DNA of 64,000 nucleotides from an uncultured Candidatus Saccharibacteria bacterium (GTDB lineage Bacteria; Patescibacteriota; Minisyncoccia; Phycocordibacterales; PALSA-1337). The position numbers and the translations under genes were made by a program. The first letter of the stretch is position 1, and the number at the start of each line of letters is the position of its first letter. Positions 12,699 through 53,337 of this stretch are shown here, in pieces. The stretch is taken from contig CAYXPQ010000001.1 in assembly GCA_964467225.1 (NCBI GenBank), forward strand, positions 6,812-70,811, written 5' to 3'. The notes below the pieces were generated by a model. The model did no database searches. It worked only from the letters and a program-made list of their open reading frames with translations, and was not told the origin of the DNA.

Positions 12699-12699
12699 G

Positions 12700-13818: not shown

Positions 13819-13819
13819 T

Positions 13820-14839
13820 TTAGAAAGTTGTGTTCTGTTCATTGTCTTCTTTCTTTTTGAAGTTAATCATTATTGATGATTGAGCTCTTTCAAGTATATC
13901 ATTTTCATGTCTGACTTCTATGTTTATATTTGAACTTCCATCTATATCCCCTTTTGGTCTCAAAATTATGCTTTGATTTTTTGTTAATTCAGGTTGTTCT
14001 ATATTATTTATTGACCAAAGATAGCTTATTTTGTTGTTTTTTGTATTGAAATTAAAACCAAACGGTGCCGCCATTATATTTAATTCTGCATTATTCATTG
14101 TATGAATATTTACAAGGGATTTGTTTAGTAATATTCCGTATAGAGGACTAATTTCATAAAATCCTATACTTGGTTCAACGGGCTCAATTCTTACAAATGA
14201 ATTCGCTTCTTCTCTCTGGTCTCTTGTATAAACGTCAACTGATATATCAAGAGGTTTTGGTATTTCGCTAGCTTTGATCTCTATACTTTGAACACCGTAA
14301 CCTGTACCATTTTCTATGTCCTTACCACCCATTTTCCATCTATATACTAGATTCTTGGGATCAACTTCTTTGATACCATCTGATGATAGATGAGGAATTG
14401 CTATTAGTTTTATCCAATTCTCATAAACAAAAGGATTTTTACCTTTATAAAAAGGTGGAGTATATGATCTACTTGCTTCCCATACAATATCAACTGATCC
14501 AGATTTTAAAGTGATTGATTTTCTAACTTCCTTTCCATTATTGGCACTGATTATGGCTAAGACTGTAGTTCTTTTGCCAATATTGGGTGATTTTGTTGTT
14601 ATTTTTTTGATACCTACTCCTCTTGCTACTTCTTTGCCATCAACTAACCATATTACTGATGAAGAATTTAAATCAATTAAATAACTTTCTATAGTTATAG
14701 TAACAATTTCGTTCGGTGCAGGTTTCTCAGGAGTGCTAGAGATTATCACCCCATCAATTGGTGCTTGATATTGAGCCTTTGCAATTCCAAATGTTACAAA
14801 AAATAGTGATACAAAAAATAACAAAAGAAGTTTTTTCAT
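13820..14839 (-). CDS. Secreted hypothetical protein
   Basis: Cleavable signal peptide MKKLLLLFFVSLFFVTFGIAKA. 339 aa. Confidence 0.6.
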   Translation of the reverse strand: MKKLLLLFFVSLFFVTFGIAKAQYQAPIDGVIISSTPEKPAPNEIVTITIESYLIDLNSSSVIWLVDGKEVARGVGIKKITTKSPNIGKRTTVLAIISANNGKEVRKSITLKSGSVDIVWEASRSYTPPFYKGKNPFVYENWIKLIAIPHLSSDGIKEVDPKNLVYRWKMGGKDIENGTGYGVQSIEIKASEIPKPLDISVDVYTRDQREEANSFVRIEPVEPSIGFYEISPLYGILLNKSLVNIHTMNNAELNIMAAPFGFNFNTKNNKISYLWSINNIEQPELTKNQSIILRPKGDIDGSSNINIEVRHENDILERAQSSIMINFKKKEDNEQNTTF

Positions 14840-14858
14840 TTATTATATTTTAACACAT

Positions 14859-15269
14859 TTAATTTTTATTTGGATATCTTATTCCCTGTTGCGTATTGAA
14901 CTTTGGAGGTCTTAGTCGTGGTGGTGTGGTTCCTGGTGTTTTAGTGACTGATGATAGAGATATTCCAGTCTTTTCTTCTAATCTGATCATTATAATAACC
15001 AAAATCATACCCAGAGTTACTGATGGTAACCATTGAAGTATGGGTATTAATTCTATTAAGGTAGAAATAATTCCTGAAGCGAGTCTTCTGGCATTAACAA
15101 TACCCAAACCAACATACCAAAAATAAATATTAATACAGATCCAAAATCCAGGTCCTAGAATACTTCCTAGTAAAGGAATTAATGATAATAAATCCACTAA
15201 TATAGCAACAAAAATCAAGATAAATGCAGTTATTGTGCCTATTTTATGTGCGGGTCTGTTATCTTCCAT
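14859..15269 (-). CDS. Small polytopic membrane protein
   Basis: Three to four predicted TM helices. Located between the VirB4-like ATPase and the secreted protein. Confidence 0.55.
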   Translation of the reverse strand: MEDNRPAHKIGTITAFILIFVAILVDLLSLIPLLGSILGPGFWICINIYFWYVGLGIVNARRLASGIISTLIELIPILQWLPSVTLGMILVIIMIRLEEKTGISLSSVTKTPGTTPPRLRPPKFNTQQGIRYPNKN

Positions 15270-15280
15270 TTTACTTTTGA

Positions 15281-17095
15281 TTATTGAGCAGAAGAAGCCA
15301 ACTCATCCTTTGCTCTCTTTATGGACAATACCTGTTCTGGATTTGTTGTAATTATTTGGTCTTCTGTATATGAAGCTACTACTTTGATTGCTACGTGTTT
15401 TAGTCCTACGAAGAATATTCCCTCCCCCACATCTGATTCTAATAGTAGATATTTCTCCTCATCAGTTAGGTTGAATGTTTTCTGTACATTATCTATTGAT
15501 GATGGAGATTGTTTCAATAGAATTTGTATTGATGAGTTGGTAATAATTGGCAAACCATAAGGAGATTTAAGGAAATCATCAACGTCCTGTGTAATAGTTG
15601 CTAGTCCTAAATAATACTTTCTTCCTCTCTTGGCTAAACCAAGCAAGAAAGAAGCTGTGTCTTCTGATTTCATCATCCACCATGCCTCATCTATTACCAA
15701 GAGGCGCTTTTTTAGCTGTTTTCTAATAGCATTCCATATATAGTGGGTGACTATATACATTGCGACTGGTTTCAATTCATCTTCCATGTCTCTCAAAGAG
15801 AATACTACGAACTTTTTATTTATATCAACATTTGATGGTCTATTAATAAATCCAGCCCATGTTCCCTTTGTGTATTTAGTCAATCTCTCAACTAGTGATT
15901 CTGCCCCCTCCATTCCAGCAAGTACAAGCTCGAAATCAGAAAGTAATGGTGGCTCAACATTTCTAAAATCCGATTCAGCCGTAATATCTTTCAAGGCGTA
16001 AGTCTCTGTAATTGCTCTATCAATAATAGAATCTTCCTCTTGTGATAATCCACCAAGCATTATTCTGAAAAGTCCAACAAGATTAATTATGTTAGATCTC
16101 AAGACATCTGCAGCACTTTCATCTTCTCTTGGCACCGGTAAATCAAATGGATTAATATGATGCTCCGAATTCAAAGAAATATTAAAATACTTGCCACCAG
16201 TTGCTTCTGCCATATATTCATATTCCTTTTCTGGATCAATGACGATAACTTCGGTATCAAACATCAGTGTTCTAAGTATTTCTAATTTTGTACAGTAGGA
16301 CTTACCAGATCCAGCCTTGGCAAAAGTTACTGAATTGTAGTTTTCAAGTAGGAATCTATCAAAAAGAACCAAAGAAGAGTTGTGTCTGTTGATTCCATAC
16401 AAAATACCCTTATCTGATGTCAGGTCAAATGAAACGAATGGAAATAAACTGGATAATGGTGAAGAATTAAGCTTGGAATGAACCATTAGCTCATCTGTAC
16501 CTATTGGCAACACACTCTTGTAACCACTTTCCTGCTGGAACAAGGCGGGCTTTAAATAAACAAGTTTTGATTCTAGAACTGATTTTATTTCTGATTCTAG
16601 TTTATCTAATTCATTTTCATTATCTCCAAAAATTGTTATATAAACTCCAACATCAAATAATTTCTCTTGGGCTTGCATAAGATTATCTCTCAGTGCCTCG
16701 AGGTCTTGGTAAGCAGTATCCAGCATTGGATCACGAACCAAACCCTTATCTTCTCTTGTTGATATTTGGCTTTGAACTTCAGCAACTTTCTTTTGGAAAT
16801 GTCTAAGAATTTTTGCTGTGTCTATGGGGTGTATAAAAATTGAAATATTAAATATCTTATCCAAATTTATAATCGGAGCGAACCAGCTTTCTGAAAGAAA
16901 TCGGGGGTATGATATGACAAAAAATGTCCTAGCAACTTTCTCACCCAAATTTAATTCCTTTGGACTGATTTTTAATGCGGAGGGAGCAATTATATCTTTT
17001 AATTCCAAAACTCCAGCCTCATATATCTCTTGAGGCATTAGTGAAACAACAGGTGTTTCTTCTTTTCTACCAAACATTTTTGAAAATATACCCAT
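15281..17095 (-). CDS. VirB4/TrbE/TraE-family conjugal-transfer-type ATPase (AAA_10/DUF87-like)
   Basis: Walker A AKAGSGKSY. Walker B LLVIDEAWWMM. 604 aa. Typical VirB4 C-terminal domain layout. Confidence 0.75.
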   Translation of the reverse strand: MGIFSKMFGRKEETPVVSLMPQEIYEAGVLELKDIIAPSALKISPKELNLGEKVARTFFVISYPRFLSESWFAPIINLDKIFNISIFIHPIDTAKILRHFQKKVAEVQSQISTREDKGLVRDPMLDTAYQDLEALRDNLMQAQEKLFDVGVYITIFGDNENELDKLESEIKSVLESKLVYLKPALFQQESGYKSVLPIGTDELMVHSKLNSSPLSSLFPFVSFDLTSDKGILYGINRHNSSLVLFDRFLLENYNSVTFAKAGSGKSYCTKLEILRTLMFDTEVIVIDPEKEYEYMAEATGGKYFNISLNSEHHINPFDLPVPREDESAADVLRSNIINLVGLFRIMLGGLSQEEDSIIDRAITETYALKDITAESDFRNVEPPLLSDFELVLAGMEGAESLVERLTKYTKGTWAGFINRPSNVDINKKFVVFSLRDMEDELKPVAMYIVTHYIWNAIRKQLKKRLLVIDEAWWMMKSEDTASFLLGLAKRGRKYYLGLATITQDVDDFLKSPYGLPIITNSSIQILLKQSPSSIDNVQKTFNLTDEEKYLLLESDVGEGIFFVGLKHVAIKVVASYTEDQIITTNPEQVLSIKRAKDELASSAQ

Positions 17096-17102
17096 AATTA
17101 TT

Positions 17103-17735
17103 TTAGTTTATTTGAATAGGCTTCTCTGTTTCTCCGGGATTGAATATTTTGTAATATAATTCTACCACTTCTTCTGTTCCTAATTCAGCAACACGTATTC
17201 CACATCTTACCAATCCTTGCTCAACAACACCCACTCTTTGTTCGAGTTGGCTTCGGTATTCCTCGAATTGTTCATTTGCAAGAACTTTGCTGTCTGTTCC
17301 CTTTTTCATTATTGAACTAATTGGATTTTTGCTAGCTGTTAAGACTGGAGGAGTATATGGAATTATAATAAAAAAGCTTTTGGTCATTATGCTTGAATTC
17401 TCGACAAAGGTTCTAATAAATTCTATGTATTCTCTTGTCTGTATTTTCATTAACTCTGCTACTTGTTCTTTATATCTTTCTTCAAGCAAGGCAATATATG
17501 GCCTAATATCAAGTCTTTTGGATTGTATGAATATTTGTACTGAGAAATCAAGAGAGTTTAGAAAATTTTGAAATTGGGATATTATCGCATTTTGTTCATC
17601 AGAAGATTTGAGGGCAAAGTTTAAGGAGGATGCCAATACTATAGATCTCATTGATCCATCCTTCAATACTACAATTCCGTCTCTAATCTCTTGAATTGGT
17701 ACGAAATCTTGGGTTGTTTTGGTGTTTTGAGCCAT
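17103..17735 (-). CDS. Hypothetical soluble protein of T4SS-like operon
   Basis: 210-aa ORF translationally coupled to neighbours. Confidence 0.55.
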   Translation of the reverse strand: MAQNTKTTQDFVPIQEIRDGIVVLKDGSMRSIVLASSLNFALKSSDEQNAIISQFQNFLNSLDFSVQIFIQSKRLDIRPYIALLEERYKEQVAELMKIQTREYIEFIRTFVENSSIMTKSFFIIIPYTPPVLTASKNPISSIMKKGTDSKVLANEQFEEYRSQLEQRVGVVEQGLVRCGIRVAELGTEEVVELYYKIFNPGETEKPIQIN

Positions 17736-17737
17736 GA

Positions 17738-18166
17738 TTATTTTTGATTTTTATTTGTGTACATGCTTTCTTTTATATCCAAACTCCATGTAAGATCTTT
17801 AAGCTTACTATCAGAAATCTTGGGAACCATAACAGATGCGTATTGTTTGGCTTCCTGAGCAACGTTTGTTGGAACTTTTTTGTCTACTTTTTTCCAAATA
17901 TATAATTTCGATGAAGTAAAATATTTAAATGCCCACTCGACCACATCAATAAATGGAAAACGTTTGTATAGTTTTCCAAATGATAACGCGATTGAGAAGG
18001 ACATAACTAACATTATAGGTACAATGGAAATTATTAATGATGGAATAAATCTATATATAGCAAATGAAATTCCTGCTCCTCCTGCTAGATACACGAATTG
18101 TCGTATTGTTAATTCACCAACTATTTTGTCCTCAACTTCAATAAATTGTGGAACTTGATACCTCAT
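17738..18166 (-). CDS. PrgI/VirB3-like small membrane protein
   Basis: 142 aa with a two-TM hairpin. Position immediately upstream of the VirB4-like gene mirrors Gram-positive PrgI/VirB3. Confidence 0.5.
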   Translation of the reverse strand: MRYQVPQFIEVEDKIVGELTIRQFVYLAGGAGISFAIYRFIPSLIISIVPIMLVMSFSIALSFGKLYKRFPFIDVVEWAFKYFTSSKLYIWKKVDKKVPTNVAQEAKQYASVMVPKISDSKLKDLTWSLDIKESMYTNKNQK

Positions 18167-18195
18167 GCACTTATTATAACATAGGGATTTTTATC

Positions 18196-18879
18196 TTATG
18201 CGAATGGTTCCCTATATGGGTCCACTGTGTATGGTTTTGGTGGTTGATTTTCTTTTTTATCAACAATTGTTTTTTTCTTGGGAGCAATTTCTACTACTTT
18301 TTTCTCTTCGACTTTCTGTGCATTGTTTATCGGGGTTGTTAATAGATGGTCAATCATTGTTGGATGCTGAGCATCTTCTATTTCTTTCAATATAGCTTCC
18401 CTATCTAGGTTGGTGTCATTATATTGAGGCGAACTTGAAGGTGGGGCTTTTGGTTCAATATGGAACTGCCCTTCTTGCTCAAGTTTCGTAGGACCAAAGT
18501 TTTGTTTTTGAATTTGTTGGGATGTGGGTGGTGGGGGTGGGGTGGGTACCGATAAGGGTTTATTGGAATCTGATAAGAATTGATTATCGATACTGCTTTG
18601 TTGTTTGTCCTGAATTTTGGATTGTATTGGTTTTAGTATTAATGTGTTAACATCAGCTACAATTTTGCTTGATAATTCATTATTAATTTCTAGCCTTTTA
18701 TTTATGTTGTTTTGAAAATCATTTGCATGGGTAAAACCCATTATTACATCTTGAATTTCCGCTGCTAATTCATCCTGTAAATCAAGCATTAAGTTGTATT
18801 TTCCAGCAATCAATGAAATATTTTTATATGTTTCATTTGAATATGCTATTTCTTTAATGTAATTTTTTAGTTGATCCAT
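18196..18879 (-). CDS. Hypothetical protein with Pro-rich low-complexity C-terminal half
   Basis: 227-aa ORF containing a PTPPPPPTSQQ stretch. Confidence 0.5.
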   Translation of the reverse strand: MDQLKNYIKEIAYSNETYKNISLIAGKYNLMLDLQDELAAEIQDVIMGFTHANDFQNNINKRLEINNELSSKIVADVNTLILKPIQSKIQDKQQSSIDNQFLSDSNKPLSVPTPPPPPTSQQIQKQNFGPTKLEQEGQFHIEPKAPPSSSPQYNDTNLDREAILKEIEDAQHPTMIDHLLTTPINNAQKVEEKKVVEIAPKKKTIVDKKENQPPKPYTVDPYREPFA

Positions 18880-18886
18880 AATAATT

Positions 18887-20827
18887 TTAGGTTATCCATG
18901 CATCTTTGTTATCATTAATAAATTTATTGGCCTGATGATTTTTATTGAATTTACCAGTCCAATAATATATTGAGTCTCCTATTTGTTTTCTTAATACATC
19001 ATCCATTCCATCCATATCTTTTAATTGACTAGCTCTCATGTGGGTAATCAAATCATCACTAATTGGTGTTCCTTGAGGTGTATTATTTTCAATATATCTC
19101 TGTAAGTCAGAACCTGTCATATTTTTCATAATTAATTTAATTTCATCATGATTTCCTGAACTGACTGCGTTTGATAAGGCCTTTTCTCTTGATTCAATTA
19201 TCTTTACTTTATCAGCATCTGATCTATCACTTTTATCTATTGCTGAATAAACATTGCTTGGTATAAATGGAATAACATTTTTATCCATCAGCTTATTTTT
19301 ATCTAACGAAGAAATTTCAGAATTAGATAGACCTTCAAATAATTTTTTAATTTCTGCACGATTAGATGTTTTTATAGCATTTTCAAGCTGATTAGTCTTA
19401 TCGGTATTTCTTTTTAATGTGCTAATAATCTTTGCTCTTGCTTTATCCTCATTCTCCACATCAGCTAGGCTTTGTTTTGAACCAAATTTACTATTTTCAT
19501 ATTGATTCAGCTTTCCTCTTACTGCCTGGCTTATACCAAGATTTCTCAATACTGAACTAGTTCTTCTTCCCAGTTCAGAACCTTGTGCACTTGCTGCCAT
19601 TGTGTCAAATTTTTCTCCAGCCCATCTCGCACTTCTTCCCACAGTATTTCTACCTATCACACCACTAACCATACCACTCACCCACTTCTGGGCTGTAACT
19701 CCCCATTTAGCACTATCGCCCCCAAGTTTAATGGCAGCAATTAAGGGGGCTAACATTACAAAATATGCAATAGTATATTGAAGGACCAGACCAACTGTTG
19801 CCATCATAAAATTATTTTTGCTACTAGCGGTTCTTGCAGCATCAAGTTGGCTAAAGAAACCCATACCATCTACTCCTGTTAGAAATTTTACTGATACATA
19901 CATCAACAATAGGTAAACTGGCATAAAGATCAATTGACCTATAAGCAAGCTACGCCATTTGCCTGAAATATTAGATTCGATCTGAGGGAAGATCATTCCA
20001 ACAAAATACACTGGTGAGAATCCCATTAATAATAACAAAATAACGATTCTAATTATGAAAGCAATAGCTGCTGCTAGTATACTTCCAGCGGCAAGTAATA
20101 TAAGAATACTACCTCCAACTGTGGCTATAATAATATGAAAGAAATCTGTCTCTGCAACTCCAGTTACAAATCCTTTGGGATTATTGTATAGGCTGGGAAG
20201 TTTTAAATTCTGCATGAATATATTAGACAATCCATTCTCTGCAGTTGGGGTTGCTGAACCAAGGATTGAAGAAATGCTATTTTTGTCTATTGTTGCAGAA
20301 TTTGGAACTAATGCTCTATAGAACTGTAATGATACCAAGTTTGAAGCGTCTATCAGTGTTTTGGTAAAAAATAGACTAAAGTTTATAAGGATTCCTGCCA
20401 TTATTATGTTTTTTATCAAAGTTGACGCGCTAGTTTTGGCTGCATCTAGAATGGTGAGTATAGAAGTGTAAATTAGAGCAAATATAATAAACATACTTGA
20501 AAGATTCCTTATAACTAGCCATATCTGGTCTATAGCAGGAGTAGCTTCATACAAGGCTTTTATATTGAGTGTGAGTACTATGGCAATATTCAATACCATA
20601 CCAGAAACACTCAAGAACCAGGCAGATGCTGAGAGTACTAACTCCCCCACATAAGCCACTATACCTTTGAAAACTGAACCGAAAGAAAATTCTTTAACAC
20701 ACAGACCAGGGTTAAAAAGACAAGCAATATCAACAGCACCAGCTTGTGCGGGAATAGGATGGAAGGCTACACTTACCACCGTAAGCAACAATATTATTAC
20801 TAGAATTGTGTTAAGTATTCTTCTCAT
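18887..20827 (-). CDS. Polytopic membrane protein, VirB6/TrbL-like
   Basis: Signal peptide plus at least 6 TM helices. Hydrophilic C-terminal tail. 646 aa. Confidence 0.55.
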   Translation of the reverse strand: MRRILNTILVIILLLTVVSVAFHPIPAQAGAVDIACLFNPGLCVKEFSFGSVFKGIVAYVGELVLSASAWFLSVSGMVLNIAIVLTLNIKALYEATPAIDQIWLVIRNLSSMFIIFALIYTSILTILDAAKTSASTLIKNIIMAGILINFSLFFTKTLIDASNLVSLQFYRALVPNSATIDKNSISSILGSATPTAENGLSNIFMQNLKLPSLYNNPKGFVTGVAETDFFHIIIATVGGSILILLAAGSILAAAIAFIIRIVILLLLMGFSPVYFVGMIFPQIESNISGKWRSLLIGQLIFMPVYLLLMYVSVKFLTGVDGMGFFSQLDAARTASSKNNFMMATVGLVLQYTIAYFVMLAPLIAAIKLGGDSAKWGVTAQKWVSGMVSGVIGRNTVGRSARWAGEKFDTMAASAQGSELGRRTSSVLRNLGISQAVRGKLNQYENSKFGSKQSLADVENEDKARAKIISTLKRNTDKTNQLENAIKTSNRAEIKKLFEGLSNSEISSLDKNKLMDKNVIPFIPSNVYSAIDKSDRSDADKVKIIESREKALSNAVSSGNHDEIKLIMKNMTGSDLQRYIENNTPQGTPISDDLITHMRASQLKDMDGMDDVLRKQIGDSIYYWTGKFNKNHQANKFINDNKDAWIT

Positions 20828-20829
20828 AA

Positions 20830-22404
20830 TTATTGACTATTTCTACATCTACCCAGCTGCGTCTTGGAATCGTTTATGTATGGACCTGCGGAAATTTTTG
20901 TTTGATCTAACTGTGTTCTAGCGTCCTGGATATCCTTTGCACTTGTCAGACTCATTGTTGTTGAAAGTTGAGATAATTTCTGGCTTGCAACATTTAGTTC
21001 TTCCAGAGTTCTTGCAGTATTTGCTGTACTTCTGATCTCTCTCATTGTTGTAAGTCTCTTCTCTGCTTCTTCAAATTGAGCTTTAAGTGTGTCTCGTGTT
21101 GGTGTTATTTTTAGAATCGCAGCTTTTACTTCATTTAATCTTGCGGAGAAGGCGCTTAGGTCCCAGTATGGTCGGTTAGGTGTAGTTAATAGTGTATTGA
21201 AACAGGCTACTGCGTCTTTGTAGTCAGTATCTATAGAGTTATATATTTCATAGCTCTGCTTCTTCAAGTCTACATAGTCAGTTGTTAGCTTCAGTGGATT
21301 TTCTATAGTACTCAATACTTGTGTTCTTAGAGTTTCGATTTGCGAAGACGAACCTTCACCATTATTTAGATTGTTTATATAAGAACTACTATCTCCTGGA
21401 CCACTTCCACTTACTGAGCCAAGTCCCTTTGTTAATACTTGGGTAATCAATTGTGCTACTAAAGCATTTACTATTTCATTTATTTCATCTGCAAGCTCAA
21501 GTTGTCTTAGACCAGATCCAAGTTGATTCTCAAGTGAACTAGAAATAACAGATCCTGGTGTTTGGATTTCACATGTTTGATGTTTACTAACTTCTTGTTT
21601 TGCATAGAACTCCTCTTCACTTCCCTTTTCTGCTTTATCCAAATCTTGTTTAGCGTACAATGCTTCCTCAGATCCATCATCTTTACACTTTTTCCATGAT
21701 AAGAATCCCTTGCCTTGATTAATCTCTTCTCTTTGTTGAGATCTGGCACTTGCAACTCTCCAAGATAGATCTGCTTCAGCTTGCAAATATGCACCATAGA
21801 CATTGTTCTGGGGTTCGGTAGACAGACTGACGAAAGCTGGCCAGCCTCCTTGTTTGAAATCCCCAGCTGTAAATCCATTTATTGATGCATTCTCAACTGC
21901 ATTTTTTGTATTTTTGATTATTGTATTTAGGGTACAAGTATATCTTTTCATCACGTTTGGGTGATATTTAAACCTTAGTGCAATTTGAATATCGATGCTA
22001 AACGGTGAACAAAGACTTGTGAGTGGACCTCCATATTTTGCAAGAAATGCACCTGTTACTTGATCTGCTACATCAAGGAAGAATGCTCCAGGATTCTGTA
22101 GAAATGAAGGACTTCCTTCGAAACCAGAATTAATCCAATTAACAACACTTTGAGTCATTTGCCTTACGACTTGTTTTACAAGAACATTAAGCAATCCGTC
22201 CAATACGAATTCCTTTAATTGGAGCGAGTATGTTGAAGCGCTTGAAACAACACTGCTAGCAGCTGTAATAGTGTTTTGGGCTATGTTACCAGCGTCTATG
22301 GTTGCTAGTTGAGCATTAGCTTTTTGAGGAATAAAAATCTGTGGAATAATAAAACTTATTATGAGTATTCCGGATATTAATTTTTTAATAAAAGAAAAAT
22401 TCAT
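20830..22404 (-). CDS. Secreted coiled-coil hypothetical protein
   Basis: Signal peptide. Internal duplicated (L/F)YAKQ(D/E)..K motif. Confidence 0.55.
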   Translation of the reverse strand: MNFSFIKKLISGILIISFIIPQIFIPQKANAQLATIDAGNIAQNTITAASSVVSSASTYSLQLKEFVLDGLLNVLVKQVVRQMTQSVVNWINSGFEGSPSFLQNPGAFFLDVADQVTGAFLAKYGGPLTSLCSPFSIDIQIALRFKYHPNVMKRYTCTLNTIIKNTKNAVENASINGFTAGDFKQGGWPAFVSLSTEPQNNVYGAYLQAEADLSWRVASARSQQREEINQGKGFLSWKKCKDDGSEEALYAKQDLDKAEKGSEEEFYAKQEVSKHQTCEIQTPGSVISSSLENQLGSGLRQLELADEINEIVNALVAQLITQVLTKGLGSVSGSGPGDSSSYINNLNNGEGSSSQIETLRTQVLSTIENPLKLTTDYVDLKKQSYEIYNSIDTDYKDAVACFNTLLTTPNRPYWDLSAFSARLNEVKAAILKITPTRDTLKAQFEEAEKRLTTMREIRSTANTARTLEELNVASQKLSQLSTTMSLTSAKDIQDARTQLDQTKISAGPYINDSKTQLGRCRNSQ

Positions 22405-22410
22405 AATTGT

Positions 22411-23277
22411 CTAATTTGGAATGAAAAATGAACCGCCTTCGTTGTCGTTATATTTCAAACTTAATGAAGTTAATTTGTTTTTGATGTTTAATATTGCATC
22501 AGCAAAAATCTGAACAGTCGGAGTATATCTAGCTACAGCTTGTACTCCCGCAAGCGGGTCTACATCTGATATTCTTAATTTCTCTACAATAAATACCAGA
22601 GAACTTACAGAATTTATTAGATCTATATGCATTTTGGACATTAATTGAGGGACTTCAACATTCAATAAACCATTCAGAATATTTTTGTAACTTTTTATTA
22701 TTGGGTCAAGCTCTTTTAGAATTGCAGGATTCTCTTTGTCGAATGAGTCTTTTGCAATTACGGCTTCATTTCTTGAAGAAATTGAATATGTTTTGAAAAC
22801 ATAACCAGCGTCATTTGCATATTTTCTTATTACATCCACACTATCATTGTTAATTATTTTGAGATTGATTATTGAATACTCCTTCGGAGAAGCTAACATT
22901 ACTCCACTCTGAATGACCTGACCAACCAATTCTTCTTGGCTGGCTTTATCATTTGCATACCCCATCTGTCTGAGTTCCATGTATCTTGCAAAAAAGTCTC
23001 TGCCAAGTAGGTCGGTGGAACTAAGCTTGTCTTTCGATTTGGTCAAATCAGTTGATTTTGAAGTGCTCGCTATGTCATTGGCTTCCAAAATTTTTTGCCA
23101 ATCTACAGATGCCTTGGGATTATCTGGACTAACTATGCTTACAGGATTATTTTTGTATACAATTTCTGATCTATTATTTCTATATTCAGCAACAAAAAAA
23201 GCAACACCTACTAAGCCTATCGCTACTAGGATCATTAACACATTTTTTGTGCTTCCTTTATTGTATAAATACTTCAC
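22411..23277 (-). CDS. N-terminally membrane-anchored hypothetical protein (first gene of T4SS-like operon)
   Basis: 288 aa with a single N-terminal TM helix. Confidence 0.55.
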   Translation of the reverse strand: MKYLYNKGSTKNVLMILVAIGLVGVAFFVAEYRNNRSEIVYKNNPVSIVSPDNPKASVDWQKILEANDIASTSKSTDLTKSKDKLSSTDLLGRDFFARYMELRQMGYANDKASQEELVGQVIQSGVMLASPKEYSIINLKIINNDSVDVIRKYANDAGYVFKTYSISSRNEAVIAKDSFDKENPAILKELDPIIKSYKNILNGLLNVEVPQLMSKMHIDLINSVSSLVFIVEKLRISDVDPLAGVQAVARYTPTVQIFADAILNIKNKLTSLSLKYNDNEGGSFFIPN

Positions 23278-27447: not shown

Positions 27448-28968
27448 TTAAATACTCTTCTGCCTGTACTGTATTGCTTCTAGTACATGTTCCCTTTTAA
27501 TATTTGGTGAGCTATCTAGATCAGCTATTGTTTGAGAAAGTTTTATTATTCTGTGATAGGATCTGGCGGACAAGTTGAGTCTTTCAGAAGATTCTTTCAA
27601 TAAAACACTTGCTTCACTATCAATTTCTATAAGATTCTCTATATCTGATAATGACATCTCACTATTGTATTTTTTATTTATACTTCTATTATCAAATCTT
27701 GTTGATTGGATATTTCTAGCTTTCTCTACTCTTTTTTTAATTAAATTAGAACTCTCATTTGCCTCTGATCTAGTTAATAGCTTGTCATAATCAACTTTTG
27801 AAACAGGAATCCACATATCAATTCTATCTACTATTGGTCCTGATATTCTTTTGCTATAGTCATTTATATCTCTATCATTGCAGGTACAGCGTTTTGTATT
27901 TCTAAAACCACATGGACACGGATTCATGGAAGCTATTAGAATACATTTTGCGGGAAATGTTAATGAGCCTTTGGCTCTAGAAATAGTTATTTTATGGTCT
28001 TCTAATGGTTGTCTCAATGATTCTATTACTTTACGATCAAATTCCGGAAATTCATCCAGAAACAGAACCCCTCTATGTGCAAGCGATATTTCTCCAGGTT
28101 GAGGATATGGTCCTCCACCAACCAAAGATACATAAGAAGCAGTATGATGAGGAGATCTAAAAGGTGGTCTCAATATTGGCTCTCTTAGAATTTTTGATAT
28201 TGAATACAGGCTAGTTACTTCTAGTATTTCACCTTCAGTGAGATTAGGTAAAATTGTTTGAAATGCTCTAGCTAGCATGGTTTTGCCTGTTCCTGGAGGT
28301 CCGTACATAACAATATTATGTCCCCCACTAGCAGCAATTTCTAATGCTCTCTTTGCTATTTCTTGACCTCGTATCATATTAAAATCTAACTCAATGATCT
28401 CTGGTTTATGAATGATTTCACTCTTCTCTAATTTTTTAATTTTGAAATTATCTTTTGTTAAATGATTTATAACTTCATTCAATGTTTTGCATGGATATAT
28501 ATCTATTCCATTCACCAACCCAGCTTCGATAGAATTCTCAATCGGTATATAAACTTCTCTATAGCCTAATTCTTTAACACCCTTAATTAGGGGTAATACT
28601 CCACTCACTCTTCTAATTTCTCCATTTAATGATAATTCACCAAGAAATATCTTATCATTTGGATTAAAACAAATATCTGTACTAGCCATAAGATAAGCTA
28701 ATGCCATTCCGAGATCAAAAGATGGACCTTCTTTCCTAATATCTGCTGGAGCAAGCGATATAACAACTTTCTGGTTTTTTTGTTTTGGGGAAATGTAGCC
28801 ACTATTCTTTATAGCTGCGGAGATTCTGTCTTTTGATTCATCAATGGCTTTGTCTCCTAATCCAACTATTGAAAATGAATGTAAACCATTTGATAAATCC
28901 ACCTCAATACTAATAATATGTGCACTTAATCCATATAATTGAGCACTAAAAATTTTTGATATATTCAT
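27448..28968 (-). CDS. comM: YifB/ComM family Mg-chelatase-like AAA+ ATPase (competence protein ComM)
   Basis: N-terminal Lon-like domain. Walker A GPPGTGKT. C-terminal ChlI domain. Confidence 0.9.
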   Translation of the reverse strand: MNISKIFSAQLYGLSAHIISIEVDLSNGLHSFSIVGLGDKAIDESKDRISAAIKNSGYISPKQKNQKVVISLAPADIRKEGPSFDLGMALAYLMASTDICFNPNDKIFLGELSLNGEIRRVSGVLPLIKGVKELGYREVYIPIENSIEAGLVNGIDIYPCKTLNEVINHLTKDNFKIKKLEKSEIIHKPEIIELDFNMIRGQEIAKRALEIAASGGHNIVMYGPPGTGKTMLARAFQTILPNLTEGEILEVTSLYSISKILREPILRPPFRSPHHTASYVSLVGGGPYPQPGEISLAHRGVLFLDEFPEFDRKVIESLRQPLEDHKITISRAKGSLTFPAKCILIASMNPCPCGFRNTKRCTCNDRDINDYSKRISGPIVDRIDMWIPVSKVDYDKLLTRSEANESSNLIKKRVEKARNIQSTRFDNRSINKKYNSEMSLSDIENLIEIDSEASVLLKESSERLNLSARSYHRIIKLSQTIADLDSSPNIKREHVLEAIQYRQKSI

Positions 28969-29054
28969 ATATATCAATATACATAATTAGGTATTAAGAA
29001 AAGCTTAAGAAAAGTGTCAAAAATTACCATTTCACAATAAAAAAGTGAAAATGG

Positions 29055-32681: not shown

Positions 32682-33131
32682 ATGCAAAACAAAGGATTGT
32701 TTGTGAAAATTAAGGTGAATATCTTTGGTTGTGATGATCACTTCAATAATTTGAGTGAGCGGAATCGTCACATATTTCGCACGGCAATTGTTGATAAATT
32801 TGTAGAACAGGCAAGGCAACGTAATCTTAAAATACCTGAGTATGATTCGGATCATGATTTGGCTGTGTATCAACTCGGTTTACCAATTTTTCGTCTTTAT
32901 TTTGCAGATGTTATTCTGCGTATTGAGGATGGAGAACAGGTGCCAGATATAGAAAATCTTTATTCTCTATCAACTGCGATTGGTGAACTTTGGGATGAAT
33001 TTGTCAGATCCTTCATTGATACTGGAGGATTTGTGGGGCTCAGATTGATATGTAAGGACAGACAATTTCGTTGGAGCTTTGAGGGGAGAGTCGTACCAGA
33101 AGAAAAGCATACCCACACTATCAATCCTTAA
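32682..33131 (+). CDS. Hypothetical protein (no recognisable domain), slightly GC-elevated
   Basis: 149-aa ORF followed 19 nt downstream by a strong terminator. Confidence 0.5.
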   Translation: MQNKGLFVKIKVNIFGCDDHFNNLSERNRHIFRTAIVDKFVEQARQRNLKIPEYDSDHDLAVYQLGLPIFRLYFADVILRIEDGEQVPDIENLYSLSTAIGELWDEFVRSFIDTGGFVGLRLICKDRQFRWSFEGRVVPEEKHTHTINP

Positions 33132-33148: not shown

Positions 33149-33181
33149 CAAAAGCCAGCGGTTCGTATACTCGCTGGCTTT
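33149..33181. terminator. Rho-independent terminator (aaaagccagcg-loop-cgctggctttt)
   Basis: 7-bp GC stem flanked by A- and T-tracts. A TTGACA / TGATAAT promoter-like pair follows at ~33215-33247. Confidence 0.7.
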
Positions 33182-33253
33182 TCTCTATTGTATATCTATG
33201 GATAATACTGTTGATAATTGACAGTAAACTATCAACTATGATAATATTACCCC

Positions 33254-34231
33254 ATGGTAACCAGCACATATCATGATATTTATGAATACATTAATAAAAA
33301 TGGACAAGCTTCAATTGTTGAGCTTTTTAATCATTTTAAAATATCTAGGCAGGCAATTTTTAGGCATATTAATAGACTACAAAAGGAGGATCTAATTTAT
33401 AAAATTGGTAAATCACCAAGGGTGTTTTATTTACCTAAAAAACAATCAAAAATAGCAAATACAGGCATTATATCAGAGGATAAGAAAGAAATTATCAATG
33501 AAAATTACCTTATTATTACTCCAGACGGGAGAAGACTAGAAGGAGTTGAAGGGTTCGAATATTGGTGTGATAAACATAATTTACCTATAGAAAAGACTGC
33601 AAATGAATATGTTGATACATTAAAAAAGTATAATAAATATAAAAATGAAGGACTAATTAATGCCACCTCAAAAATTAAAGATAGTTTTGAAGAAATTGGT
33701 CTAGATGCCTTGTATTATAAGGATTTCTATAGCATTGAGAGATTTGGAAAGACCAAACTTGGACTGATTCTCCTCTATGCTAAGCAAAGCCAAGATAGAA
33801 ATCTAATAAAAGAGATTGAGAACATTATAAGACCTTCCATTGTTGATATTATTAATAATAATGATATTGATGCTATTGGGTTCATTCCTCCAACAGTAAA
33901 ACGCGAAGTACAACTTATGAGGGAACTTGAAAGATCACTTAGTATATCTTTACCGATAATAAATTTGGTAAAAATTAAAGGCGATATAGCTATTCCACAA
34001 AAGACCTTGAATAAAATTGAAGATAGAATAGAAAATGCTAGAAAATCTATTATTCTTGATGATAAGAAAGTATATAATAATATTCTTTTGATTGATGATG
34101 CTGTAGGTTCTGGTGCCACTCTAAATGAAACTGCAATTCAAATCAAGAATAGACAACTCTGCAAAGGTAAAATAATTGGATTAGCTATTACAGGTAGCTT
34201 TAAAGGATTTGATGTGATAAGTGAGGTGTAA
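33254..34231 (+). CDS. Winged-helix DNA-binding domain fused to type I phosphoribosyltransferase domain (PurR/ComF-like)
   Basis: N-terminal HTH (IVELFNHFKISRQAIFRHINRL). C-terminal PRPP-binding motif ILLIDDAVGSGATLNE. Confidence 0.65.
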   Translation: MVTSTYHDIYEYINKNGQASIVELFNHFKISRQAIFRHINRLQKEDLIYKIGKSPRVFYLPKKQSKIANTGIISEDKKEIINENYLIITPDGRRLEGVEGFEYWCDKHNLPIEKTANEYVDTLKKYNKYKNEGLINATSKIKDSFEEIGLDALYYKDFYSIERFGKTKLGLILLYAKQSQDRNLIKEIENIIRPSIVDIINNNDIDAIGFIPPTVKREVQLMRELERSLSISLPIINLVKIKGDIAIPQKTLNKIEDRIENARKSIILDDKKVYNNILLIDDAVGSGATLNETAIQIKNRQLCKGKIIGLAITGSFKGFDVISEV

Positions 34232-34232
34232 T

Positions 34233-34850
34233 CTATTCTTGTCCCGATAAATCTGCGATCTCATCTGCTACAGTTCCCAAAGTAGCATCTTTCGGTCCCC
34301 TTTTCTTAAAACTTGCTCTGAAATTTGATTTACCTTTAGCATGGCCTCCAATTAAATATTTCTTAACATCCTCATCAAGATCAAAGAAATCATCAACAGC
34401 CTCACGTAATTTAACTGAAGTAGACTTACCAAATGAAACAACTTCTACTTGGCAACCCTCATTTGTTTGTAAATATTCTACCAACGGTACAAAGTCTCCA
34501 TCCCCTGTTACAAGAATAACAGCATCAAGCTTGGGTGCCATTTTGACCGCATCAATAGCCATTCCAACATCCCAATCTGCCTTTTTAGCACCACTTCCGA
34601 ATATTTGAAGATCTTTTGTTTTTGTTTCTATTCCCATTTTTGTCAAAGCTTCAAAAAATGCCTTCTCATCTCCCGCTTCAGTGGTTATAACATAAGCTAT
34701 GGCTCTAATAAGCGATCTATCGCCTACTACATCTTTTACTATTTGGCCAAAATTAACTTTTGAATGGTATAGATTCTTAGCACTATGGTAGATGTTTTGA
34801 GTATCTATAAAAACTCCAACTCTCTGTTCTCTGTGTTTTATTACTGACAT
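34233..34850 (-). CDS. NYN domain (LabA/DUF88-like) protein
   Basis: VGVFIDTQNIY...ILVTGDGDFVPLV PIN-like acidic residues. Confidence 0.75.
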   Translation of the reverse strand: MSVIKHREQRVGVFIDTQNIYHSAKNLYHSKVNFGQIVKDVVGDRSLIRAIAYVITTEAGDEKAFFEALTKMGIETKTKDLQIFGSGAKKADWDVGMAIDAVKMAPKLDAVILVTGDGDFVPLVEYLQTNEGCQVEVVSFGKSTSVKLREAVDDFFDLDEDVKKYLIGGHAKGKSNFRASFKKRGPKDATLGTVADEIADLSGQE

Positions 34851-35261: not shown

Positions 35262-35700
35262 AAAGCGCAAGGGGTTGTTGACTAGAAAGAAGAAAACCCC
35301 AGACAATACATCACGTCTGGGGTTATACTGCGACCCACCTTCGTCTTGTGACTTGGTGGCGCCGAGGTCGTTCAGTTTTGGCTAGTGTTCTTGTTTTCGA
35401 AATGCTTCGGCGGGCTGTTCATGGGTGCCTTTCCCTTTTGGATTCACGGAATTGCATTCTTTTTTGGTCTCTCAAGGGATTGCGCTTACCCACACTACGT
35501 GGGGTGCATCTTCTTCACGATGACTCCTTTCTTTGTCGATTTCCCTTCTCTGGCGTGAGGCCGGGGCCGGGTGATCAGGAATTATTTTTTCCGACGCTGA
35601 CACCGACAGGGGGCGGTCCGTTGTTCATGGCTCCTTTTGTTGAGCTTTTAGCTCAGGCGATTATCATGCGTAGGAAGTGATCTACTGTGTTATTCACCTT
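35262..35700 (-). ncRNA. Candidate structured RNA gene in GC-rich island (tmRNA/ssrA-like 3' end); identity unresolved
   Basis: About 50% GC in a ~32% GC context. No credible ORF (the 110-aa plus-strand ORF is Arg/Trp-rich noise). Minus strand reads ...GGCGCCACCA at 35354-35363. An 8-bp hairpin (35296-35323) plus U-tract follows. Adjacent to the tyrosine recombinase gene. Confidence 0.4.
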
Positions 35701-50357: not shown

Positions 50358-52106
50358 ATGCACATAGAAGATTCACAACTAGATAAGTTTATTTTAGATT
50401 CTAATCTAATATCCAAATCTGATTTAGACGAAGCTGAGAAGCAAGCTAGGGAAGAGAATAGACGCTTGGGTGATATTCTTGTAAGTAGTGGCAAAATTAC
50501 TGAAGACAATTTGCGAAGGATGCAAGCTTATGTGCTGGGCATACCTTTCGTGGATCTTAAAAATAGGAAGATACCTTTTGAGACCCTATCAATGATTCCT
50601 GAGCCTGTGGCTAGAAATCATAGTATTGTCGCGTTTAAAAAAGATGATGGAATGTTGGAGGTGGCAATGCTTGATGTAGAAGATCTTTCTGCAATTGATT
50701 TTGTAAAAAAGAAGGTAAATTTAAAGATTCTACCTAGACTTACTGATTCTGAATCAATAAAAAACGTAATAATTCAATACCAAAAGAGTCTTAAAGCAGA
50801 ATTCGGTGATATTATACAGAAAGAATCAGAAACACTAAAAACTATAACAGAAGAAGCGGGGGAATCGTTCTCTGAAGCAGACTTAAAAAAGATTGCAGAG
50901 GATTTGCCTGTGGTAAGAATCGTAGATACATTGCTTAAGCATGCAATATTACAGAACGCATCGGATATTCACATTGAGCCAATGGATGATCAATTATTAG
51001 TTAGATATAGAATTGATGGAATGCTTCATGATGCCATGGTTCTTCCTAAGAGTGCAGAGCCATCTATAACTGCTCGTATAAAGGTGCTATCTAATTTGAA
51101 ATTGGACGAGAAGAGGTTGCCTCAAGATGGTCGTTTTAAGATCGATATGAATAATGAGAAAGTTTCTTTCCGTGTTTCTCTACTCCCAACTTATTATGGA
51201 GAGAAGACAGTAATGCGTCTTCTACGAGAAAGCGTATCTGGTTTTACATTGGAATATCTCGGTTTCCATGGAGAGGGACTAGAAAGGATTCATCATGCTA
51301 CTACTCTTACAACTGGTATGATACTTACAACAGGACCTACTGGATCAGGTAAAACGACAACTTTGTATACTATTTTGGATATTCTTAATCAGCCAGATGT
51401 AAATATTTCAACAATTGAAGATCCTATTGAATATCAAATGAAAAGAATAAATCAAACTCAGGTTAAGCCTGAAATTGGTTTTACTTTCTCAGTGGGATTG
51501 AGGACTTTAGTTAGACAAGACCCTGATGTTATTATGGTGGGTGAGATTCGAGATAATGAAACGGCCTCATTGGCGGTTAATGCTGCTTTAACAGGTCACT
51601 TGGTTCTATCAACACTTCACACTAATAGTGCTGCTGGTGCAATTCCTAGATTGATGGATATGAAAATCGAACCATTTTTACTTGTTTCAACAATAGATAT
51701 AATTATTGCACAGAGACTTGTAAGGAAGCTTTCAGAACATAAAGAAAAATATTTCTTAAGCAAGACTGAAATAGCAACATTATCAAAAACAGTTGATCTG
51801 GATAGGGTGTTGCAAGCATTAAAGGATGAGAAGGTGATTAAGAGTGCGGATTCTTGGGAGAAAATTCCTTTCTGGAAGCCTATTGCATCAAAGGACGATG
51901 ATGGTTATAAGGGAAGATTAGGTATACACGAAGTTCTGAAAGTTACACAAAGTATCAAAGATTTGATTATAAAGGGGGCAACTACTACTGAAATTGAAGA
52001 ACAAGCAAAGAAAGAGGGGATGTTAACAATGATTGAAGACGGAATATTTAATGCAGTAAAAGGTATTACAACAATTGAGGAGGTATTAAGAGTTATTTCA
52101 GAATAA
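50358..52106 (+). CDS. pilB: Type IV pilus assembly ATPase PilB/GspE family
   Basis: N-terminal GSPII_E_N domain. Walker A GPTGSGKTTT. Asp box, Walker B and His box present. Lacks the C-terminal tetracysteine. Confidence 0.9.
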   Translation: MHIEDSQLDKFILDSNLISKSDLDEAEKQAREENRRLGDILVSSGKITEDNLRRMQAYVLGIPFVDLKNRKIPFETLSMIPEPVARNHSIVAFKKDDGMLEVAMLDVEDLSAIDFVKKKVNLKILPRLTDSESIKNVIIQYQKSLKAEFGDIIQKESETLKTITEEAGESFSEADLKKIAEDLPVVRIVDTLLKHAILQNASDIHIEPMDDQLLVRYRIDGMLHDAMVLPKSAEPSITARIKVLSNLKLDEKRLPQDGRFKIDMNNEKVSFRVSLLPTYYGEKTVMRLLRESVSGFTLEYLGFHGEGLERIHHATTLTTGMILTTGPTGSGKTTTLYTILDILNQPDVNISTIEDPIEYQMKRINQTQVKPEIGFTFSVGLRTLVRQDPDVIMVGEIRDNETASLAVNAALTGHLVLSTLHTNSAAGAIPRLMDMKIEPFLLVSTIDIIIAQRLVRKLSEHKEKYFLSKTEIATLSKTVDLDRVLQALKDEKVIKSADSWEKIPFWKPIASKDDDGYKGRLGIHEVLKVTQSIKDLIIKGATTTEIEEQAKKEGMLTMIEDGIFNAVKGITTIEEVLRVISE

Positions 52107-52110
52107 GCAA

Positions 52111-53337
52111 ATGTCACATTTTATTTATAAAGCTAAAAAATCTACTGGAGAAATATATAAAGGTGAAAAAGACGCTAATGATCGTTATGAACTTTATAAA
52201 ATATTAAAAGAATCTGGTGACGAGGTTATTGATGTAAAAGAGAAATTTGGTAGTAGAATATCAATAAAAAGTAGTTTTAATTTCTCATTCTCACTCTTTG
52301 GTAAAGTTAAAGCTCAAGAAAAAATAAATTTTGCAAGAAATCTAAGCTCTATGATTACTGCAGGACTTTCTATGTCTAGAGCATTGTCAGTTATTGAAAG
52401 ACAATCAAAAAATAAATTTTTTCAAAAAATAATTTCTTCATTACAGACAGAAATAACAAAAGGTAAGACCTTAAGTGATGCTATGTCTATGTATAAAAAT
52501 GTTTTCTCTCCACTTTTTATATCTATGGTCTCAGCAGGAGAGAAGAGTGGTACCTTAAATGATTCGCTAAAAATAGTTGCTGACCAATTGGATAAGAATT
52601 ATGTTTTACAGAGAAAAGTGAAAGGGGCAATGATGTATCCAGCGATAATACTTTTTGCAATGGTACTTATCGCTATTTTGATGTTGACATATATAGTGCC
52701 GACCCTAATGAAGACATTTACTGAGTTGAAACTAGATTTGCCTATGTCGACCAAGCTTATACTTTTTACAAGTAAACTATTAATCAATAACGGATTATTT
52801 GTCTTAATTGTAGTTGTTATTCTTATTTCTTTATTTGTTTTGTGGTCAAAAAAAGAAGGAGGTAAGAAAGTAATTCATCTTTTTATATTAAAAATTCCCA
52901 TAGTTGGTAATATTATCAAAGAGGTTAACTCTGCAAGAACCGCAAGGACACTTTCTTCATTGTTAAGTTCAGGAGTAGATGTTGTTGAATCGGTCAAAAT
53001 AACAAAAGATGTTATTCAGAATATTTATTACAAAAAAATCCTGGATAAAGTAGGATTAGCAATAGAAAAAGGAGAACCGATATCAAAGATTTTTACTGAA
53101 AACTCAAATCTATATCCAATTTTCCTTGGAGAAATGATAAATGTAGGTGAAGAAACTGGTAAGATTGGAGAAATGCTTCATGGTGTAGCTATATTTTATG
53201 AAGATGATGTAGAACAGAAGACAAAGGATATGTCTACTATTATAGAACCATTCTTGATGATTATAATTGCTGCTGTGGTGGGATTTTTTGCTGTTGCGAT
53301 GATTTCACCTATGTATTCACTTGTAAATGTTATATAA
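52111..53337 (+). CDS. pilC: Type IV pilus inner-membrane platform protein PilC/GspF family
   Basis: Two T2SS-F repeats and 3 TM helices. 408 aa. Confidence 0.88.
   Translation: MSHFIYKAKKSTGEIYKGEKDANDRYELYKILKESGDEVIDVKEKFGSRISIKSSFNFSFSLFGKVKAQEKINFARNLSSMITAGLSMSRALSVIERQSKNKFFQKIISSLQTEITKGKTLSDAMSMYKNVFSPLFISMVSAGEKSGTLNDSLKIVADQLDKNYVLQRKVKGAMMYPAIILFAMVLIAILMLTYIVPTLMKTFTELKLDLPMSTKLILFTSKLLINNGLFVLIVVVILISLFVLWSKKEGGKKVIHLFILKIPIVGNIIKEVNSARTARTLSSLLSSGVDVVESVKITKDVIQNIYYKKILDKVGLAIEKGEPISKIFTENSNLYPIFLGEMINVGEETGKIGEMLHGVAIFYEDDVEQKTKDMSTIIEPFLMIIIAAVVGFFAVAMISPMYSLVNVI

Follow-up and report, generated by a model that had tools for sequence, protein, structure and literature searches.

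In a 64,000-nucleotide stretch (the window) of contig CAYXPQ010000001.1 from an uncultured Candidatus Saccharibacteria bacterium, we analysed the gene at positions 33254 to 34231, which the original prediction had read as a winged helix-turn-helix (wHTH) fused to a phosphoribosyltransferase (PRT) domain, either a PurR-like regulator or a ComF-like competence factor. The fused architecture is confirmed, and each of the two labels proves half correct. With a probability of about 0.6, the gene encodes a stand-alone, vertically inherited, three-domain protein of Patescibacteria that works as a ligand-sensing autorepressor built on a PRT domain of the ComF clade. The evidence consists of an operator-like palindrome found at the start of the gene across loci, covariation of this palindrome with the recognition helix of the protein, and conserved loops for binding phosphoribosyl pyrophosphate (PRPP).

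A predicted palindromic operator at the promoter of the family gene

Across the loci, we detected a palindrome of ~27 bp in the 100 nt upstream of the family gene, made up of four 7-bp repeats, two forward and then two inverted (consensus GTTkAyA-GTTkAC-n-GTmAAC-TrTmAAC; further examples are GTTTACAGTTTACTGTAAACTGTAAAC and GTTGACAGTTGACAGTCAACTGTCAAC). The features of the window concerned are the following.

33254..34231, + strand: coding sequence of the family gene, ATG start, 325 amino acids (aa), with a wHTH, a novel domain and a ComF-clade PRT domain
33210..33236, no strand: operator-like palindrome GTTGATAATTGACAGTAAACTATCAAC, 27 bp, with 13-nt arms (33210-33222 and 33224-33236), symmetric about nt 33223
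33218..33247, + strand: sigma-70-type promoter (promoter scan, 11/12 and 10/12 matches)

According to a repeat search, the arms of the window operator are 85% complementary and separated by 1 nt. In a motif-blind test, at least 11 of 13 palindromic positions matched in 78 of 85 upstream regions, against 39 of 836 (4.7%) random control windows of the same loci and 11 of 425 shuffles. A position weight matrix (PWM) built from 36 distinct sites identified sites at the start of the family gene in 84 of 84 loci and only four elsewhere in 835 kb. This count is partly circular, since the matrix was derived from those sites, a problem that affects neither the palindrome test nor the metagenome scan. 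In that scan, a reverse test on independent metagenome loci, 56 of 80 exact matches to the degenerate pattern were located 0-200 nt upstream of a family gene, one was cut by a contig end, three had a decayed family copy next to them and three were found immediately 3' of tandem pairs of paralogues.

The PurBox-like operators at purine genes that had been anticipated for a PurR-like regulator were not found in the 64-kb window, which the regulon scan of this genome covers: the only operator-like site is the heptad palindrome at the gene's own promoter (PWM score 33.7 bits), the sole site of at least 8 bits besides its own 7-nt shift. No coherent wider regulon was visible in the window, in the 835 kb of related loci or among the metagenome sites.

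The outer heptads match the locus consensus in 83 of 83 cases and the inner ones in 56-61 of 83; extra repeats are present in about a fifth of the loci. In most loci, the window included, the operator covers the -35 box and the spacer, and in 18 of 81 it lies between the -10 box and the start codon. In the window, the -35 box TTGACA (33218-33223) falls within the operator, and the -10 box is either GATAAT (33240-33245, 16-nt spacer) or a TG-extended TAATAT (33242-33247, 18-nt spacer). The repeats themselves contain promoter-like hexamers (TTGACA or TTTACA forward, TAAACT in reverse), so that the sequences for repressor and polymerase largely coincide.

The ATG of the family gene follows the -10 box by 6-8 nt and a Shine-Dalgarno sequence is absent, so the mRNA is probably leaderless. 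Family-wide, a -10-like hexamer ends 4-10 nt 5' of the start codon in 63 of 81 genes, compared with 158 of 413 control open reading frames (ORFs), and a Shine-Dalgarno-like motif is present in 1 of 81 compared with 29 of 413, the control starts being crudely set.

Tandem family paralogues with different operators (GTTCATA type and CAGGTTAATATTAACCTG) are encoded in L065 (5971-8600) and also in L096, L132 and L166. After the paralogue pairs comes a third, perfect operator of the GTTTACA/GTTGACA type, followed by a terminator and no gene; this orphan may be a relic of gene turnover or serve a tiny transcript. Decayed copies that keep the operator were detected in L100 (2776-2998; residues 1-14 joined in frame to the last ~43, 57 aa in all), L094 (9514-9560; ATG changed to ATA, with no gene behind) and L110 (133-200; a truncated N-terminus beside a tRNA gene).

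The operator covaries with the recognition helix

The heptads vary by lineage (TTTACA, TTGACA, TTGATA, TTCCTA, TTCATA, TGTACA and others), and both arms change together. Every GTTCCTA operator occurs with an xRA[IV]RKQL helix, GTTGACA with ISRQALFKHL and GTTCATA with IS[EQP]RA[VI]F[KS]QL. Over 81 non-redundant loci, and with phylogeny controlled only roughly, operator distance correlated with recognition-helix distance at r=0.51, compared with 0.05 for the rest of the protein and 0.07 for the wing; the partial Mantel statistic was reached by none of 2000 permutations. This selective covariation is the signature expected of direct operator readout by the protein's own helix 3.

These data bear on the proposal that the palindrome is the site of another factor or an RNA hairpin, and the protein an ordinary MarR/ArsR-type regulator with a degenerate PRT remnant. 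Source annotations do name relatives MarR or HTH proteins, and in 18 of 81 loci the mRNA would carry the palindrome at its 5' end. However, the covariation concerns the protein's own recognition helix, the palindrome is upstream of the probable transcription start in most loci, and the PRPP loop, the arginine of the pyrophosphate (PPi) loop and the ComF signature are invariant across relatives of 30-55% identity. An RNA element was also rejected on the ground that no Rfam family matches the palindrome. We consider this proposal very improbable.

A winged helix, a middle domain and a PRT domain

The domains and motifs of the 325-aa protein are the following.

33254..33436, + strand: wHTH, aa 1-61 (HTH_24 above cut-off, DSSP on the AlphaFold2 model, conservation)
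nt 33338-33385, + strand: recognition helix, ~aa 29-44 of the wHTH
aa 48-61 of the wHTH, + strand: wing, with G52, P55 and Y59 at least 90% conserved
33470..33697, + strand: middle domain, aa ~73-148, a helix, a beta-hairpin and three helices
33698..34228, + strand: type-I PRT fold of the ComF/PsyrT/ShosT clade, aa ~149-325
nt 33884-33904, + strand: PPi loop with the invariant R217 (alignments)
nt 33998-34036, + strand: flexible loop and ComF signature Q249-x2-L252-x5-R258-x2-N261
nt 34082-34129, + strand: PRPP loop ILLIDDAVGSGATLNE, aa 277-292, with D281, D282 and T289
34205-34228, + strand: C-terminal tail GFDVISEV (or GFEVISEV), aa 318-325

The N-terminal ~60 residues are a winged-helix DNA-binding motif, as first proposed. 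Residues 8-48 score above the cut-off of Pfam HTH_24 (26.9 bits against 21.9; E=3.5e-6), and the AlphaFold2 model (predicted local distance difference test, pLDDT, 84.7; predicted template modelling score 0.72) shows alpha1-alpha2-alpha3 and then a beta-hairpin wing over aa 4-61. For the window protein the MarR models stay below their cut-offs (MarR_2 23.7 bits against 27, MarR 20.1 against 24.6), and PuR_N is absent among the Pfam matches at E<=1. The closest PDB sequence matches of the wHTH profile (aa 3-60) are Z-alpha domains of PKZ, PKR-like kinases and ADAR1 (E ~3e-4). Z-DNA binding was nevertheless rejected: the contact Asn and Tyr on helix 3 are replaced by Phe/His and Ser/Asn/Lys, and the wing Pro-Pro is the only Z-alpha contact feature kept out of Asn, Tyr and P-P-x-W.

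The original prediction had left a middle region of ~150 aa unmatched. About half of it, aa ~73-148, indeed has no recognisable relative, but the rest is a low-confidence linker (aa 62-72 in the AlphaFold2 model) and the N-terminal part of the PRT fold (~149-220). Modelled alone, aa ~73-148 reaches pLDDT 91.9. This domain carries the motifs P90-x-G92, G97, GFxxW(C) and K140; no Pfam or PDB sequence match was found for it, and the best Foldseek match in PDB has E 1.9. The match to the PsyrT PRTase module described below extends into its last helices (aa 105-148). The winged helix and this ~75-aa domain stand where ComF has its zinc ribbon, whose absence from the protein we confirm: the first 150 aa contain a single Cys (C105) and no PF18912 match.

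The canonical C-terminal PRPP loop is present as claimed (ILLIDDAVGSGATLNE) and is the sole PRT-type loop in the window, but PF00156 is sub-threshold for the window protein alone, and the profile check of the PRT motif was therefore made at family level. There it is supported: PF00156 is matched by 52 of 60 close homologues (best E 2.2e-7), TIGR00201 (comF) by 108 of 112 diverse relatives (best E 2e-11), the GntX model by 50, the PADLOC PsyrT/RqlH model PDLC03928 by 112 of 112 (best E 4.2e-19) and ShosT by 96 of 112. PDLC03928 is also the strongest profile match of the window protein itself (E 4.5e-14, 49.7 bits), aligning aa 105-313 with profile positions 476-682 of 689, i.e., the C-terminal PRTase module. 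PRTase-CE (PF24390) scores 12.4 bits on the window protein (gathering cut-off 27) and is weakly matched by 45 of 60 relatives (best E 5.6e-6).

An hhalign comparison with the GntX/ComF alignment spans the PRT domain (aa 156-314; probability 87%, E 3.7e-6) and pairs Q249, L252, R258 and N261 with Q163, L166, R171 and N174 of GntX. ComF proteins are marked by the signature Q..L....R..N before the PRPP strand and an Arg after strand 2 (PMC5512222), and the family has both, the latter as R217. Invariant or nearly so at 30-55% identity are K177, R217, Q249, R258, N261, D281, D282 and G285-S286-G287, and T289 is invariant among the 60 closer homologues. By alignment of the PRPP loops (DDAVGSGATL against DDIITTGTTL), T289 corresponds to T165 of Helicobacter pylori ComFC, a protein that binds PRPP and AMP and in which mutation of T165 abolishes nucleotide binding (PMC9005727). 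ShosT likewise binds PRPP, and its toxicity requires the PRPP-binding DD pair (PMC11961720; PMC12961424); the purines tested were not bound (PMC11961720).

By sequence, then, the PRT domain belongs to the ComF/PsyrT/ShosT clade and not to PurR by descent. Because this fold retains all three PRPP-binding loops, the domain would be expected from homology to bind PRPP or a 5'-phosphoribosyl nucleotide. Of the ComF-like label the ancestry thus holds (TIGR00201, hhalign, PsyrT), but the role of competence factor finds no support in the gene context, with no conserved neighbour in 80 genomes, and the zinc ribbon is absent. The last eight residues are conserved to the extreme C-terminus throughout the family, yet have pLDDT 29 in the model; the tail could dock into a partner subunit or protein.

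The structural comparison with PurR and ComFC gave a divided answer. Foldseek of the AlphaFold2 model retrieved PRT structures at probabilities of 0.99-1.0, ShosT structures included. The top full-length match is Bacillus subtilis PurR-ppGpp (7rmw, E 4.7e-5, but with a root mean square deviation (rmsd) of 18 A), while the best superposition is on H. pylori ComFC (7p0h, TM-score 0.38, rmsd 4.2 A over 177 columns). This full-length match, the identical order of wHTH and PRT domain and the strong in-silico evidence for an operator make PurR a fitting analogue in design and, probably, in function. An orthologue of the Bacillus protein acting on purine genes through PurBoxes is the least probable of the readings considered here. 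PurR chains are absent from the PDB profile-search matches, no PurR model is found among the 25 NCBIfam families most matched by the 112 relatives, the PRT domain scores with ComF and PsyrT instead, and a middle domain is added; the missing PuR_N match and the single operator in 64 kb point the same way. We therefore rejected membership of PurR as contradicted by the Pfam, NCBIfam and PDB profile searches.

A widespread and conserved family of Patescibacteria

A sequence search of 5.8 billion proteins returned 4102 matches. The top 120 are 309-330 aa long (nearly all 320-330) with at least 95% query coverage and 55-100% identity; they come mostly from Patescibacteria, and their source names are inconsistent (MarR, 'HTH domain', 'ComFC', 'HGPRT/biotin operon repressor'). 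A profile of aa 72-325 against 1.84 billion representatives of 50% identity clusters matched 263 clusters at E<=1e-30 and 1005 at E<=1e-3, with the same domain layout in all of the top 150 clusters.

The family is encoded in at least 546 species genomes, mostly of Patescibacteria (Parcubacteria/Paceibacteria lineages, Roizmanbacteria, Gracilibacteria, Peregrinibacteria/Peribacteria, Doudnabacteria, Magasanikbacteria, Moranbacteria and Ca. Microsyncoccus archaeolyticus); organism labels were taken from the records, and some are clearly unreliable. Four metagenome-assembled genomes titled 'Candidatus Melainabacteria' (L044, L047, L064 and L070, one on a 482-kb contig) also carry it, all with GTTCCTA-class operators and the helix SDRAIRKQLKKL, which reflects either presence outside Patescibacteria or mis-binning. 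Third-party annotation records titled Gammaproteobacteria, Bdellovibrionales or Methanosarcinales that carry the family are probably mislabelled. We found no fusion of wHTH and PRT among the structure-based annotations tabulated for the Saccharibacterium S. epibionticum, which has a canonical zinc-ribbon ComF, SEML1_0021 (PMC10633639 supplement).

When the same genome pairs were compared, identity of the family protein was 85% against 83% for PNPase and 79% for ComM, and in further pairs 58% against 39% for PilB, 57% against 47% for an aminoacyl-tRNA synthetase and 56% against 44% for the CCA enzyme. For L016, BLAST gives 57% identity for the family protein and 58-59% for its neighbours. Its identity tracks or exceeds that of housekeeping neighbours, and the gene therefore behaves as vertically inherited and strongly constrained, like a core gene rather than a defence gene. 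Across classes of the candidate phyla radiation (CPR), conservation of the protein matches or surpasses that of housekeeping enzymes.

Proposed mechanism and points against it

We propose a mechanism in four steps. The first is supported computationally: the wHTH is predicted to bind DNA sequence-specifically, with the 27-bp palindrome over or just downstream of its own promoter as cognate site. The bound protein, presumably a dimer or a pair of dimers, would then occlude RNA polymerase, and autorepression is suggested because the operator overlaps the promoter. By homology, the PRT domain would bind PRPP or a 5'-phosphoribosyl nucleotide, as the solved ComFC and ShosT do. Finally, and most conjecturally, the protein might bind its operator more or less tightly depending on ligand occupancy, as B. 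subtilis PurR does in response to PRPP. In that case, protein levels would track the PRPP or nucleotide status of a cell unable to make nucleotides de novo.

Several points weigh against this autorepressor. The analysis is wholly computational, and we infer the repression, oligomeric state, ligand and allostery. The window protein by itself scores 19.2 bits with PF00156 against a cut-off of 26.3, and 18.7 bits with TIGR00201 against a curated cut-off of 233.55. About 16 of the 80 exact metagenome sites adjoin unrelated genes (TrpRS, Wzy_C, SRPBCC, small HTH proteins) with no common theme, and may reflect regulation of a few other genes or relics. The rough phylogenetic control and the circularity of the PWM count, given above, belong here too. 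Finally, conservation is higher in the PRT and middle domains than in the wHTH, a pattern not normal for a pure sensor domain and one that hints at an additional function of the protein. Because the operator is essentially private to the family gene and these two domains are better conserved than the head, they may have a further job, e.g., catalysis or nucleic-acid handling.

The last point leads to a bifunctional enzyme-repressor in the manner of BirA or PyrR, in which the PRT domain is a PRPP-dependent transferase with the middle domain as its hood and the wHTH keeps the dose small and steady, this PRTase clade being potentially genotoxic. Beside the uneven conservation, the invariant C-terminal tail and the near-confinement of the operator to its own promoter would suit such an enzyme, as would the toxin PRTases being the nearest profiles (PsyrT 112/112, ShosT 96/112) and the dependence of ShosT toxicity on its DD pair. 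PRTase activity has, however, been demonstrated for no member of the clade, ShosT bound none of the tested purines, and no DprA-like partner gene is linked. Such an enzyme is compatible with autoregulation and differs from the ligand-sensing autorepressor only in the role of the PRT domain; we regard it as possible, though unlikely.

A ligand-sensing autorepressor would give Patescibacteria, in which almost no transcription factor-operator pair has been defined, a base-level prediction across hundreds of species with natural specificity variants. It would also attach a DNA-binding read-out to the PRT domain of the ComF/ShosT/PsyrT clade, for which structures have been solved (PMC9005727, PMC11961720, PMC12961424). 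A more general idea, which we hold to be doubtful, is that the ComF-clade PRT is a PRPP- or nucleotide-gated switch for nucleic-acid binding. The CPR family would then be its most basic version, complete in itself with one protein, one operator and one ligand. If true, the family would allow one to assay directly what the PRT domain of ComFC, ShosT and PsyrT binds and does, and would represent a conserved nucleotide-precursor sensor in bacteria that scavenge all their nucleotides. Its pairs of operators and recognition helices would form a natural specificity code for a winged helix.

Genomic neighbourhood

Competence-related genes are present in the window as had been noted: ComM (27448-28977), PilB, PilC and a pilin (50358-55099), RecJ (59375-61057) and ComEC (61610-62944). 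They are not adjacent to the family gene but 4-28 kb away, and their linkage is not conserved. Among 80 genomes we found no conserved neighbour, the most frequent being shared by at most 7 of 80 loci, and a competence link by neighbourhood was rejected as com, pil and dprA linkage is not conserved in these genomes. A DprA gene was not found near the family gene. Neither a second PRT gene nor a canonical ComF gene was found in the window, in 855 kb of related loci or in 545 kb of metagenome loci, a sample too small to carry weight.

These genes are nonetheless among the reasons to consider a CPR-specific equivalent of ComFC in DNA uptake, in which the wHTH and the middle domain replace the zinc ribbon and the protein hands single-stranded DNA to DprA/RecA or to salvage. 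The ComF-type PRT with its Q..L....R..N signature and Arg after strand 2 agrees with this, one relative is named ComFC by NCBI, and CPR bacteria rely on imported nucleotides (PMC10633639). Against it, the wHTH has a specific duplex operator that covaries with its helix and is not that of a generic DNA binder, S. epibionticum shows that CPR bacteria can have a canonical zinc-ribbon ComF (SEML1_0021), the protein lacks a membrane-association signal, and the linkage fails as described. We judge this equivalent improbable.

A defence gene or toxin, prompted by the likeness to PRTase-CE, ShosT and PsyrT and by the neighbours, was not adopted as a reading: the gene is single-copy, without a partner gene and slow-evolving. 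The family gene is often beside variable regions. AbiE and Fic genes recur near it in 4-5 loci, and in L006 (905-9370) it is located inside a type I restriction-modification cluster (HsdM, AAA, HsdS, a 186-aa ORF without Pfam match, the family gene and HsdR). L037 (142-1926) has a second operator copy, with an IS30-like transposase and a HicAB-like pair between it and the family gene. A tblastn search of plasmids with the PRT half gave no match.

On its 5' side, the family gene of the window is preceded by a hairpin and a short ORF.

33150..33182, + strand: hairpin AAAAGCCAGCG...CGCTGGCTTTT (repeat search: 11-nt arms, 100% complementary, 11 nt apart)

The hairpin is a probable terminator of the preceding 149-aa ORF (32682-33131) that would isolate the family gene as its own transcription unit; a stricter terminator scan did not call it. 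This ORF has no Pfam or NCBIfam match and shows only 37% identity with the corresponding ORF of L008, against 73-86% for the flanking genes of that locus, and is either fast-evolving or no real gene. On the 3' side, an NYN-domain gene (34233-34850, - strand) converges on the family gene. The two ends are 1 nt apart with no terminator between them, and the transcripts would therefore overlap or collide.

Elsewhere in the window, dnaN and dnaA are adjacent on the - strand (7378-10140), ~23 kb from the family gene, and the window thus probably includes the replication origin region. Positions 11403-23277 (- strand) hold large ORFs, mostly without Pfam match, around a TraG/VirB4-type P-loop ATPase (TraG-like ORF, 15281-17095). 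This ATPase is 85% identical to an ORF of L056, whose family protein is only 53% identical to that of the window, which suggests a conjugative or type-IV-secretion-like mobile element common to distant CPR genomes. Between rpsO and a xerC-like gene, an ORF-poor gap (35333-35700) has ~50% G+C against 33% in the genome; it has no Rfam match and no similarity in the syntenic L009 and L010, shows a fold z-score of -2.3 on the + strand, and could be an unrecognised structured RNA or an insertion.

Comparison with known systems

The closest design is that of B. subtilis PurR (1P4A, 7RMW), in which an N-terminal winged helix is also followed by a type-I PRT fold with a PRPP-type pocket. Gating of DNA binding by PRPP or nucleotides is predicted to be shared, as is autoregulation: B. 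subtilis PurR is autoregulated. In contrast to PurR, the PRT domain of the family comes from the ComF/PsyrT lineage, its wHTH is of the HTH_24/MarR type and not PuR_N, and a domain of ~75 aa is inserted. The family has a 27-bp heptad palindrome at its own promoter where PurR has paired PurBoxes at pur genes, and no regulon is visible for it.

With ComFC/ComF (TIGR00201; 7P0H; Escherichia coli GntX/YhgH), the family shares the signature Q-x2-L-x4/5-R-x2-N, the Arg after strand 2 and the PRPP-loop Thr needed for nucleotide binding. It differs in lacking the zinc ribbon, in scoring far under the family cut-off, and in having a sequence-specific wHTH with its own operator and no conserved link to com genes.

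The toxins of two kinds of defence system, PsyrT/RqlH (in PsyrTA/RqlHI) and ShosT (in ShosTA), carry a related PRTase module. Unlike PsyrT, the family is without a RecQ-like helicase (the match covers only the last ~200 profile positions), and unlike ShosT it is without a pyrophosphatase domain. No DprA-like antitoxin is adjacent, the flanks in the window being the 149-aa ORF and the NYN-domain gene, and the family gene behaves as a slow-evolving, vertically inherited core gene and not as a patchy defence gene.

MarR/ArsR-type autorepressors resemble the family in that a winged helix binds a palindrome over its own promoter, as predicted here, and several HTH models match; the family lacks the MarR dimerisation-helix architecture and has a PRT domain as effector module. 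A wHTH-PRT protein of CPR was not found described in the literature. Seen beside these systems, the family is a PurR-style design on a ComF-clade PRT domain, combined with a domain without known relative and a predicted operator code, and not a member of the PurR family.

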